Positions 16,850 to 39,680 of a DNA stretch of 64,000 bases are shown in pieces (position 1 is the stretch's first letter; each line of letters starts with the position of its first letter). The DNA is taken from the NCBI GenBank assembly GCA_033723415.1, contig JAWVXD010000005.1:176486-240485 (forward strand), written 5' to 3'. The DNA is from Sulfurospirillaceae bacterium. Lineage in GTDB: Bacteria; Campylobacterota; Campylobacteria; Campylobacterales; Sulfurospirillaceae. The notes below the pieces were generated by a model. That model was given only the letters and a program-made list of their open reading frames with translations, did not search any database and was not told the origin of the DNA. The position numbers were made by a program, and so were the translations under genes.

Positions 16850-17222
16850 GGGGTTGACAAGGCTTCGACAGGAATAGTGTCAACTTTTGGCTGCATGTCG
16901 CAAGTGAGGGACTTGCGTTACCAAACCTTCAAAACAATAACTGCTAATAACAGTAACTATCGTCCTGCTTACGCTGTAGCGTAAGTTTAAGTAAAACTTT
17001 GGACTGCTTCCTCCTTTGATTCTATCTATAAGGATTTTGGAAGTATCATAGCTTGATAGATATATTTTAAGTCTGCCTCGTCTTAAAATGAAATTAGAGG
17101 CTAGTTTTGCGTAGTTTTGTTAGTTGTATGAAGCAAAATGAATTTTTAACAACTATTTTAAGCATGTAGACGCTGAGAGTGGCTATTTTTGGACTCCGGT
17201 TCGATTCCGGACAGCTCCACCA
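16850..17222 (+). ncRNA. ssrA: transfer-messenger RNA
   Basis: 5' GGGGTTG pairs with CAGCTCC-ACCA (G3:U Ala determinant); T-arm CCGG-TTCGATT-CCGG; tag ORF ANNSNYRPAYAVA* at 16943-16984. Confidence 0.97.
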
Positions 17223-36986: not shown

Positions 36987-37478
36987 CTATGTGTTAGTGG
37001 GCATATTTTGCCCCATAAATAAATCTTTCAAATTTAAAAACAAATTTGGATGTTCTTTTTTGATTTTTCTTAATAATTTTTCCAAATCTATATTTAAACT
37101 TTTTGCATGGTTGTTTTTGTCTGCAAGTTTTTTTATCTCATCCATAGCAACAGTCCAAACATCTTGAAAGTCTATAGGAACATGTTGCAAAATCGTTTTT
37201 TCCAATTTTAGATCAAAATTATCTTGCTGCAATTTTTTAAAATTTTCTATCAATTTATGGATAGAATCTATGGATATCATAGTATGCAGTTTTTGATTTT
37301 CATCTATAATGAACCACGGTTCTTTGCCGTCCCAGCTTCCGCTTTTTAGACTAAGCGTCTTGATATCCGGATTATCTGTTTTTGCTATCTCTATAACTGT
37401 ATCGTATTTTCTGTTTTTATCGCCTATATATTCTTCTATATCTTCTATTTTATCAAATATATTAATATCTTTTTTCAT
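36987..37478 (-). CDS. conserved epsilonproteobacterial protein (DUF2603-like)
   Basis: EPWFIIDE, LKLEKTILQHVPIDFQDVWTVAMDEI, KEHPNLF; start MKKDIN after AGGAGA; lies between argF and hemN as in C. jejuni. Confidence 0.8.
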   Translation of the reverse strand: MKKDINIFDKIEDIEEYIGDKNRKYDTVIEIAKTDNPDIKTLSLKSGSWDGKEPWFIIDENQKLHTMISIDSIHKLIENFKKLQQDNFDLKLEKTILQHVPIDFQDVWTVAMDEIKKLADKNNHAKSLNIDLEKLLRKIKKEHPNLFLNLKDLFMGQNMPTNT

Positions 37479-37635
37479 TTTACTTCTCCTTTTTGTTGAA
37501 CAAAGTCCAACAAAAATTCCTCTCACTAAAGCTACGACATTGTCGAGAGTATTCATTGAATTTTTACTTTAACTCGAAGCGATCCCAAGTTAAATTACTC
37601 TCGCCAAAGCTTACGCCTTGCGCAGAAATTCTCAT
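37479..37635 (-). repeat. structured ATG-to-SD intercistronic element, copy A
   Basis: Colinear conserved blocks shared with 38580-38701; nested stems CGAGAGTA/TACTCTCG, TTTAACTTG/CGAGTTAAA, TTTTTGTTGGAC-TTT-GTTCAACAAAAA; ends in AGGAGA. Confidence 0.75.
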
Positions 37636-37658
37636 ATTATTTTTCTAGTATAGTATTT

Positions 37659-38579
37659 TTATCTTTCTTTGTCTAGCCAGACCATCAATCCTTTTTGTGC
37701 ATGAAGTCTGTTTTCAGCTTCGTCAAAAACTATATTTGCATATTTTTCAAACACTTCTTCACTGACTTCATATCCTCGATAAGCAGGCAAACAATGTAAA
37801 AATATTGCATCATCTTTTGCTTCAGCCATAAGTTCGCTATCGACAATAAAGCCTTTAAAGTCTTGAATTCTTTTTTCTTTTTCAGCTTCTTGACCCATAG
37901 ATATCCAAGTATCTGTCGTAACGATATCTGCACCTTCAACTGCCAGTTTTGGATCATTATAGTAACTTACAGAGCCTCCGCTTTTCGCACATAACATCTT
38001 TGCATCATTCATTATCTCTTCAAGCGGTTCATATCCTTTTGGTGTAGCAACCCGAAGCTCAAATCCTAGCTTTCCGGCAAGCATCATCCATGAATGAGTC
38101 ATGTTATTTCCATCCCCGACATAAGCCACTATAGGGTTTTTGTCTTTTCCATACTCGATCATCGTCATATAATCAGCCAATAACTGTACCGGATGATATT
38201 TGTCCGTGAGACCGTTTATGATAGGAACTTTGGAGTATTCTGCGAACTCATCCAAGATTTTTTGTGAAAAAGTTCTGATCATGACCATATCAACCATTCG
38301 GCTTATCACACGTGCTGAATCTTTCATAGGTTCGCCACGACCAAGCTGTAAGTCATTTGACGACAAGAATAAACCCTGCCCGCCTAGCTGATGAATCCCT
38401 ACTTCAAAACTTATCCTTGTTCTTGTGCTGCTTTTTTCAAAAAGCATACCTAATGACTGATGCTGTAAGTATGGAATATAATTTTTAACTTTTGCTTCTC
38501 TCTTGATTTTTATGCCCAAGCCGATGATCTCTAAAATCTCTTCCTTTGTGCAATCAAACAGTGATAAAAAATGTCTCAT
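37659..38579 (-). CDS. argF: ornithine carbamoyltransferase
   Basis: [51 protein letters not shown]. Confidence 0.97.
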
Positions 38580-38701
38580 ATTAATATCTCCTTTTCACTG
38601 AACAAAGCCCAGTAAAAATTCCTCTCACTCTTGTGAAGCGAAGCGGTTACCTCGTAATCACTCTCTGTGAGAAAGCTACCTCTTTGCGTAGAATAATTCA
38701 T
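38580..38701 (-). repeat. structured ATG-to-SD intercistronic element, copy B (contains a 41-codon ORF, 38576-38701)
   Basis: Same blocks as copy A; hairpin TTTTACTGGGC-TTT-GTTCAGTGAAA then AGGAGA; fills the hemB-argF gap. Confidence 0.75.
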
Positions 38702-38702
38702 C

Positions 38703-39680
38703 TTATGCCCCCTCCCCTAAAATCTCAGCAACTTCTTTTGCATGATAACTTATGATTATATCTGCCCCGGCTCTTTTAAATCCAAGCATCGTTTCCATCA
38801 TAACACGTTCATAATCTATCACTCCTGCACTGCCAGCAGCTTTAAGCATCGCATATTCACCGCTTACATTATAGACGGCAAGAGGTAAACTTGTATATTC
38901 TCTTACATCTCTTATGATATCAAGATAAGCAAGAGCCGGCTTCACCATAAGTATATCTGCTCCCTGAGCTTCATCTTCTATAGATTCTGCTATGGCTTCT
39001 CTTCTGTTTGCCGGGTCCATTTGATAACTTCTACGATCTCCAAAACTCGGTGCAGATTCTGCAACATCACGAAACGGTCCATAATAGGCACTTGCAAACT
39101 TCGTTGAATAACTCATAATAGGCAGATTGATATAACCTTCACTATCAAGTGCATCTCTTAGGGCTTCTATCATCCCGTCCATCATACCGCTCGGTGCGAT
39201 CATATCTACTCCTGCGCGTGCGTGAACCAAAGCCTGCTCGCCCAAGATCTCCAAAGTCGCGTCATTGTCTACGGTTTCGTTTTCCATATCTAGTATTCCG
39301 CAGTGTCCATGATCTGTAAATTCACAAAAACATAGATCGCTCACGACGAACATATCAGGATGCTCTTTTTTTATAGCTTTGATAGTCGAAGCTATGATAC
39401 CGTGTTCACACAAAGCATCACTGCCTATACTGTCTTTTACATCCGGTATTCCAAATAAAATGATAGAGTTGATACCCAGTTTTTTTAGAAGCACACACTC
39501 TTTTAATATCTCATCTATGCTCATCTGATAAACTCCCGGCATTGAGCTTATCTCTTTTTTAATATTCTCTCCACTTTTTACGAACAAAGGATATATAAAA
39601 TCTTTAATCGAAAGATTGTTTTCTCTAACTAAGTCTCTTAAATTTTTATTTATTCGGAGTCTTCTAAATCTTTTAAACAT
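38703..39680 (-). CDS. hemB: porphobilinogen synthase
   Basis: [41 protein letters not shown]. Confidence 0.97.

Follow-up and report, generated by a model that had tools for sequence, protein, structure and literature searches.

Mycobacterial interspersed repetitive units (MIRUs), which reportedly go back to Supply et al. (1997), are the nearest described counterpart of the repeat analysed here. In the published accounts, as far as their available text goes, MIRUs are elements of 40-100 bp present at about 40 places, mainly intergenic and in one orientation (PMC12548453, PMC3184786, PMC5056196). The same partial texts describe small ORFs that overlap the neighbouring genes, variation in tandem number, tetranucleotide repeats that tell filled from empty sites, and insertion at start codons with -4 coupling. 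No obvious palindromes are reported in the accessible part of PMC5056196, and another review notes internal inverted repeats. On the spread of MIRUs, and of the Neisseria repeat REP2, the accessible portions of the reviews say only that the repeats appear mobile (PMC12548453, PMC3184786, PMC5056196).

The window (the whole 64,000-nt stretch of DNA that was analysed) contains two elements, A and B, on the minus (mRNA) strand of an operon comprising hemB, argF, a DUF2603 gene, hemN and an Fe-S protein gene (Table 1). A preliminary description of this DNA had placed related elements on both sides of argF, each bounded by ATGA and ending in a hairpin, the sequence AAAGGAGA, a spacer and ATG, with compensatory changes in the last hairpin. 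These features were all found as described, as was GCGAAGC, which lies on the plus strand at 38638 within the linker region of B. Element A had been taken for a single element with a long middle and is instead a pair of tandem units, A1 and A2.

Table 1. Coordinates of elements A and B, their parts and the adjoining genes (positions in the window).
Feature	Position	Strand	Remarks
hemB (ALAD)	38703..39680	-	host gene upstream of B; domain match
Element B	38580..38701	-	single repeat unit plus 42 extra in-frame nt
B hairpin 1	38679..38689	-	imperfect, C-AAA-G triloop
B conserved linker	38616..38677	-	interrupted by the 42-nt extra, which folds into nested hairpins
B hairpin 2	38592..38618	-	fold and model alignment
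B Shine-Dalgarno AAAGGAGA	38587..38594	-	serves argF; first bases paired in the foot of hairpin 2
argF (ornithine carbamoyltransferase family; OTCace)	37659..38579	-	served by B; domain match
argF stop-to-A1 spacer, 23 nt	37636..37658	-	common to the closest relative
Unit A1	37557..37635	-	leading member of the tandem pair, with both hairpins and a decayed ribosome site; 62 bits
Unit A2	37479..37556	-	intact unit; 93 bits
A2 hairpin 1	37535..37545	-	
A2 linker	37514..37533	-	
A2 hairpin 2	37490..37516	-	
A2 Shine-Dalgarno	37485..37492	-	
DUF2603 gene	36987..37478	-	served by A2; domain match

The leading ATG of B (38701) lies 1 nt past the hemB stop codon, behind a purine-rich site in the 3' end of hemB, and opens a mini-ORF of 41 codons whose TGA overlaps the ATG of argF in a shared ATGA. 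The peptide matched no family in a Pfam scan. The 42 extra nucleotides of B are placed between AGC and GTGAGAGG and may have been inserted there or may be left over from a second unit that collapsed; part of them aligns to the model as a second left half, and many copies in one other genome (G048) have a 42-nt extra of different sequence at the same place. With either origin, the middle motifs that had been listed as common to A and B are not clearly in homologous positions. In A, the mini-ORF of A1 has 23 codons and ends 7 nt short of the A2 ATG, which is in frame with the DUF2603 gene and lacks a ribosome site of its own. The ribosome site of A1 is decayed, and A2 alone serves the DUF2603 gene. 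The spacer between argF and A1 holds a -10-like hexamer, a weak signal given that 6 promoter-like sites were found against 4.5 expected; no promoter was found within the unit itself, and the one promoter-like site upstream of A is at chance level.

Folding of A gave a z-score of -3.1 (0 of 200 shuffles as good) and folding of B a z-score of -2.4 (3 of 200). The region is spanned by one contig from the likely source run and is covered at 38623-38808 by a piece from a second study, in both cases with no differences, so it is not an assembly artefact; the sequencing-run contigs contained no joint that would match the loss of A or B.

The complete unit of about 82 nt consists of ATGA, a short A/T stretch, TCT, hairpin 1 (4 bp, mostly with a 3-nt loop), a near-invariant linker of 20 nt, hairpin 2 (about 11 bp), AAAGGAGA, a further 5-7 nt and the start codon. 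In an alignment of 105 copies from many genomes, fitted to a model that already held both hairpins, the 11 best covarying column pairs all fell in the two hairpins, the top ten were standard pairs in 88-98% of copies, and TCT, the linker and the ribosome site were mostly 93-100% conserved. A separate MAFFT alignment of 25 copies had 81 cells changed on both sides, compared with 27 in shuffles. Hairpin 2 was biased towards G.T (121) over A.C (13) among 1710 pairs. A C-AAA/AAG/GAA-G triloop closes 83 of 144 first hairpins, and such triloop hairpins are stable as DNA. The sense strand was favoured whether the unit was folded as RNA (113/120) or as DNA (109/120); the fold therefore does not separate action as RNA from action as DNA.

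A model in which a long first helix closes a four-way junction was not supported, pairing beyond the three invariant TCT/AGA pairs being at or below the level of shuffled sequences; TCT/AGA and the 2-bp middle hairpin had no two-sided changes. A kissing contact between the AAA and TTT loops was set aside, there being no evident correlation. The unit has no terminal inverted repeats, its ends being direct repeats, and no terminator-like U-tract. An Rfam scan at both thresholds returned no match for the element, ribozymes included. The sole Rfam match in the window was a tmRNA gene at 16850-17222.

An iterated profile search at E<0.01 gave 37 copies across the whole genome and no match in the reversed sequence, which disposes of a purely local duplication of two copies. 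The predicted bias towards gene starts was also borne out: by a mechanical ORF call, 40 of 42 matches have a same-strand gene directly downstream, and the two exceptions are a copy that precedes a sense ATG and a half copy. A start codon could be assigned to 32 of 37 arrays, and 26 of these starts begin ATGA, against a crude ATGA background of 43.5% of 1307 starts; in other genomes, 84 of 118 starts begin ATGA. The downstream genes, named by eye from their translations, share no function and include arginine, haem, ATP synthase, ribosomal, recR, clpX, parB and urease genes. Degenerate or half copies also follow apparent non-coding RNA genes (a tRNA end and one other) in this genome (G000), at G000:C12 ~26716 and G000:C2 ~313704, both common to G013.

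The leading ATG is kept in 17 of 37 arrays and lost in the other 20. Where a ribosome site precedes it, the mini-ORF stops at the next start in 8 of 8 copies, compared with 1 of 9 where the site is missing (Fisher p 0.0004); these eight mini-ORFs, of which that of B is the clearest example, have 26-54 codons, and two of them read through two units. The conserved frame stops within -8..+1 of the start in 111 of 184 units, the other two frames in 62 and 64. Spacings of -4 to +3 are given as the efficient coupling range in the accessible text of PMC12548453. These reading frames suggest that translation of the mini-ORF and the downstream gene is coupled; the result may also reflect the youth of the copies that keep their leading ATG. 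At three loci in two other genomes (L320 and L338 in G048, L350 in G111), a TATAAT hexamer precedes the left ATG by 6-7 nt, the arrangement expected of a leaderless start, and insertion there would give such a leaderless gene a ribosome site.

The covariance model detected the repeat in 13 of 13 genomes of the same genus and 18 of 18 of the same family, with 2-87 copies each. In an order-wide survey that scored 29 candidates per genome, it was present in 40 of 151 genomes, from its own family and 7 of 24 others, and copy number across genomes ranged from 0 to 87. Lineages with one or two copies hold them at fixed junctions. Among the matches listed, the exact core was found in Sulfurospirillum, Sulfurimonas, Sulfurovum, Arcobacter, Hydrogenimonas and Nitratifractor, and all named carriers belonged to the Campylobacterota; one cyanobacterial match lacked the hairpins. 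Records of a cultured and harmless species, Sulfurospirillum arcachonense DSM 9755, carry the core. A plasmid search gave no match, and viral contigs yielded nothing but one chance 20-mer. The literature searched, which comprised listings, the openings of abstracts and the accessible text of the Arcobacter butzleri genome paper (PMC2147049), contained no description of a Campylobacterota family of this kind, and the family is apparently undescribed there.

Filled and empty orthologous sites, and a doubling of ATGA on filling, had been proposed as a test of insertion, and both were found. The hemB-argF junction could be compared in 19 relatives that had hemB in view: 4 of them have a filled junction, 12 a tight one (gap -4 to +4) and 3 some other arrangement; the argF-DUF2603 junction is filled in 1 of 20 relatives, by four units. 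Tandem number varies from genome to genome, with two units between argF and the DUF2603 gene here and four in G013, and one unit between hemB and argF here and three in G003; in all, 41 of 251 arrays are tandem. The comparison with the closest relative, which covered 2.0 of its 2.38 Mb (84%), showed the sites of the 37 arrays here to be empty in 20 cases and filled in 8, with 9 unscored. Clean empty sites have one ATGA and filled sites two, and several non-clean sites retain an eroded remnant with a ribosome site. In the reverse comparison, 4 of 12 of the relative's sites are empty here, as are 67 of 85 junctions that are filled elsewhere. In this genome at G000:C3 (~145450-145610), a different, single-copy long hairpin of 150 nt lies within the boundaries that enclose one unit in G013.

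Identity among the copies in this genome (0.67) is no higher than that to copies in congeners (0.65-0.69), which indicates no recent activity here; judged by this comparison, the copies in this genome are old. Several genera have copies at the hemB-argF, hemN, gcvH and rplM junctions, a pattern that is also compatible with old insertion followed by repeated loss. Recent bursts were found in two other genomes, G048 and G111, which contain dozens of genome-specific longer copies (about 140-185 nt) that have unique flanks and are 84-100% identical, an identity inflated within each genome because the loci were partly picked by similarity. The left ends of the burst copies are (A)TGAAA or (A)TAAAA. 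A long upstream ORF stops within 14 nt of 19 of 44 burst copies, compared with 2-3% of random positions, and a ribosome site lies upstream of the insertion in only 6 of 44.

Flanking direct repeats scoring at least 12 were found at 16 of 177 single copies, compared with 0.6% in shuffles; the count omits one row that was an indexing artefact, and it includes rows that are related by descent or that merely mirror the SD-ATG consensus. The length of the repeats varies from 4 to about 35 bp. Flanking duplications of 23-39 bp are present at six loci (L282, L287, L157, L129, L135 and L182) and comprise the lepA 3' end, a native SD-spacer-ATG or a gene end with a promoter-like hexamer. One full unit lies in an RNA gene: in the RNase P RNA gene of G126 (L309:1501-1924), a sense unit with an altered ribosome site replaces the P12 loop, and three family relatives have a short P12 without the unit.

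The preliminary description had proposed a test for co-occurrence with RAYT/IS200 nucleases or reverse transcriptases, and no such link was found; no mobiliser emerged among Y1, reverse transcriptase, IS110 and IS1595 genes. Linkage was examined at 30 of 52 Y1 matches. Only one of these 30 has a copy nearby, at a distance of up to about 1.5 kb; that copy serves atpE, and its position was judged coincidental. The local RAYT-like genes have inverted ends (GGGGACAG/GGGGTCAG) of the TIRYT type, a type described as not REP-associated in the available part of PMC6006769. A resemblance of the TIRYT end GGGGACAG to the 3' end of the element was left as a coincidence. The closest complete relative has 17 copies, and its only Y1 gene encodes an IS200-type TnpA. 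Y1 genes are common in the burst genomes and missing in one copy-free congener, yet they are present in copy-free genomes. The only above-cut-off Y1 gene of G000 (219 aa; L051:434-1161, at the start of contig C1) has TIRYT-type inverted ends and adjoins an attC-like hairpin and a restriction-modification-like gene.

Of 28 genomes, 10 have reverse transcriptase domains; the search yielded none in the two burst genomes, G048 and G111, nor in G003, G008 and G017. IS1595 was found in 0 of 28 genomes. IS110 was found in 12 of 28, and no copy lay nearby at 12 IS110 loci. In G111, two IS110 insertions occupy one position inside the repeat's ribosome site (L348:1620-3128; L347), and the repeat is therefore a target of IS110. 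An IS110 element 88% identical to that of G111, in the copy-free genome G023, uses a similar short target. Among the matches listed, neither burst genome had an element split by an ORF.

The best explanation for these observations is that A and B are copies of a two-hairpin repeat of about 82 nt found in free-living Campylobacterota, which is likely to be a non-autonomous mobile element that inserts at start codons and is predicted to maintain translation of the host gene by means of its own Shine-Dalgarno sequence and a coupled mini-ORF. The preliminary description had left open whether the element was mobile or regulatory; it is likely to be mobile, judging from the filled and empty sites, the doubled ATGA, the bursts and the RNase P RNA copy. 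The entry site of a copy would be (A/G)TGA(AA), in many cases at a junction where stop and start codons overlap or adjoin. Of the two resulting repeats, the left would retain the upstream stop and the old ATG, and the right would rebuild the start behind the new ribosome site. Insertion would be tolerated because, with ATGA doubled, neither the stop before the copy nor the start after it is lost, and because the unit brings a ribosome site. Ribosomes that initiate at the old ATG would translate 26-54 codons across the fold and terminate at the start of the host gene, and the copy might later multiply in tandem or erode to little beyond its ribosome site. An RNA module selected by the host, acting in cis at operon junctions in processing, stability or translational control with mobility secondary, is an improbable alternative. 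The strong covariation and invariant linkers in every lineage, the ribosome site partly paired in hairpin 2 and the fixed junctions of low-copy lineages all favour such a module, but the downstream genes share no function, most sites are empty in close relatives with several eroded to the ribosome site alone, copy number varies from 0 to 87, and a terminator-like U-tract is lacking. It is more improbable still that the repeat is a joint for gene shuffling, at which copies recombine so that a stop is joined to a different start and neither gene is harmed: mnmA of G048 follows a MarC-like gene via two tandem copies (L316), with a different upstream gene at 11 of 11 loci from 10 congeners (L372-L383), but breakpoints were found at 0 of 28 scored sites in the comparison with the closest relative and at 0 of 12 in the reverse.

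For the movement of the inserting element, which is likely to be as a folded single strand, the tentative first choice is the trans action of a structure-reading, HUH-like nuclease on single-stranded DNA, a route that is somewhat short of an even chance. Recognition at the DNA level is suggested by the triloops of the first hairpins, the lack of terminal inverted repeats and the tandem arrays, as in BIMEs; direct repeats of 4 to about 35 bp are unexplained by a simple HUH model, and no mobiliser tracks the copies. Close behind, though still doubtful, is enzyme-free spread, in which recombination between the SD-spacer-ATGA sequences of tandem or filled sites would free small circles or gene-conversion donors that re-enter SD-ATGA sites by microhomology, hairpin symmetry being kept by template switching. 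This reading concerns the movement step only. It accommodates the variable direct repeats, several of which span a whole SD-spacer-ATG (14-24 bp), the frequency of tandem arrays and the want of a transposase that tracks the copies, but it leaves unexplained the near-invariant single-stranded linker across eight families, the sharp common left end of burst copies that seldom have an upstream ribosome site, and the RNase P copy. The last of these, in a dispensable loop and in sense, is one of the points in favour of an RNA intermediate, ranked third and unlikely, in which a folded RNA would be joined into transcripts, or would prime, at exposed translation junctions and then be copied into DNA. 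The strict sense orientation, the G.U bias towards the mRNA strand and the duplications of 20-35 bp ending near the start codon point the same way; the patchy occurrence of reverse transcriptases, with none found in either burst genome, and the lack of an Rfam ribozyme match point away from it. Slightly less likely again is a transposase-free, RNA-borne element that targets via translation: a folded RNA with an invariant purine-rich core would enter transcripts at start and stop codons and at the open RNase P loop, host enzymes would fix it into DNA, and the junction would act as a bicistronic coupler.

MIRUs and REP2 were described decades ago, and no means of spread has been identified for them. 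With an independent family resembling MIRUs in another phylum, landing on start codons is shown to be a repeatable strategy, and the recent bursts, the structure defined by covariation and the presence in cultured S. arcachonense make the mechanism testable. The repeat also rewrites the ribosome sites of core genes and yields spurious N-terminal extensions in annotation, and its variable tandem loci could be used for typing.

Among other known repeats, Neisseria REP2 and Borrelia IR-A are likewise dispersed, with two stem-loops and a ribosome site and ATG directly upstream of genes; they too lack terminal inverted repeats, and the means of spread is not established in either, as far as the available part of PMC3184786 describes them. 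REP2 differs, in the same partial account, in having a promoter and heading co-regulated genes, whereas no conserved promoter was found in the repeat here, which is mostly inside housekeeping operons. The small hairpins with a conserved mismatch, the tandem amplification and the use as an insertion-sequence target (IS110 in G111) recall REP/BIME sequences, judged from the accessible text of PMC3333891 and PMC6006769. Unlike those, which are palindromes of 20-40 nt, the repeat has no GTAG-type foot in the 105-copy profile, forms only direct tandems with no inverted pairs, was not found to flank a Y1 gene at the 30 loci examined and was never seen antisense or between convergent genes. It resembles MITEs, as they are presented in the available part of PMC3184786, in being short, in coding for no transposase and in having filled and empty sites with direct repeats, but it has no terminal inverted repeats; its direct repeats range from 4 to 35 bp, and no matching autonomous element was found among the Y1, IS110 and IS1595 genes searched. 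It is unlike a riboswitch or other Rfam family in matching no curated model and in having downstream genes that are not functionally coherent at conserved positions.

The preliminary description did not recognise the element as a named REP, MITE or riboswitch, and the Rfam scans were empty, but its kind has already been described in mycobacteria as MIRUs, on the evidence of the accessible accounts (PMC12548453, PMC3184786, PMC5056196). The likenesses, judged from MIRU descriptions and not from sequence homology, are a unit of about 82 nt in 37 dispersed, mainly intergenic copies, one orientation relative to transcription (40/42), a small ORF that overlaps at its ends with the genes on either side (in all 8 copies whose leading ATG is translatable), a single ATGA in clean empty sites and a double one in filled sites, and a tandem copy number that is variable per locus. 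The differences are the phylum (Campylobacterota) and the AT-rich sequence, the two strongly covarying hairpins with invariant linkers, the strong built-in Shine-Dalgarno sequence, the genome-specific longer versions in recent bursts, the occasional duplications of 20-35 bp and the RNase P RNA copy. The repeat has the working features of a MIRU, but its host and its covarying hairpins differ; it is therefore MIRU-like in the way it works but is not classed as a MIRU.
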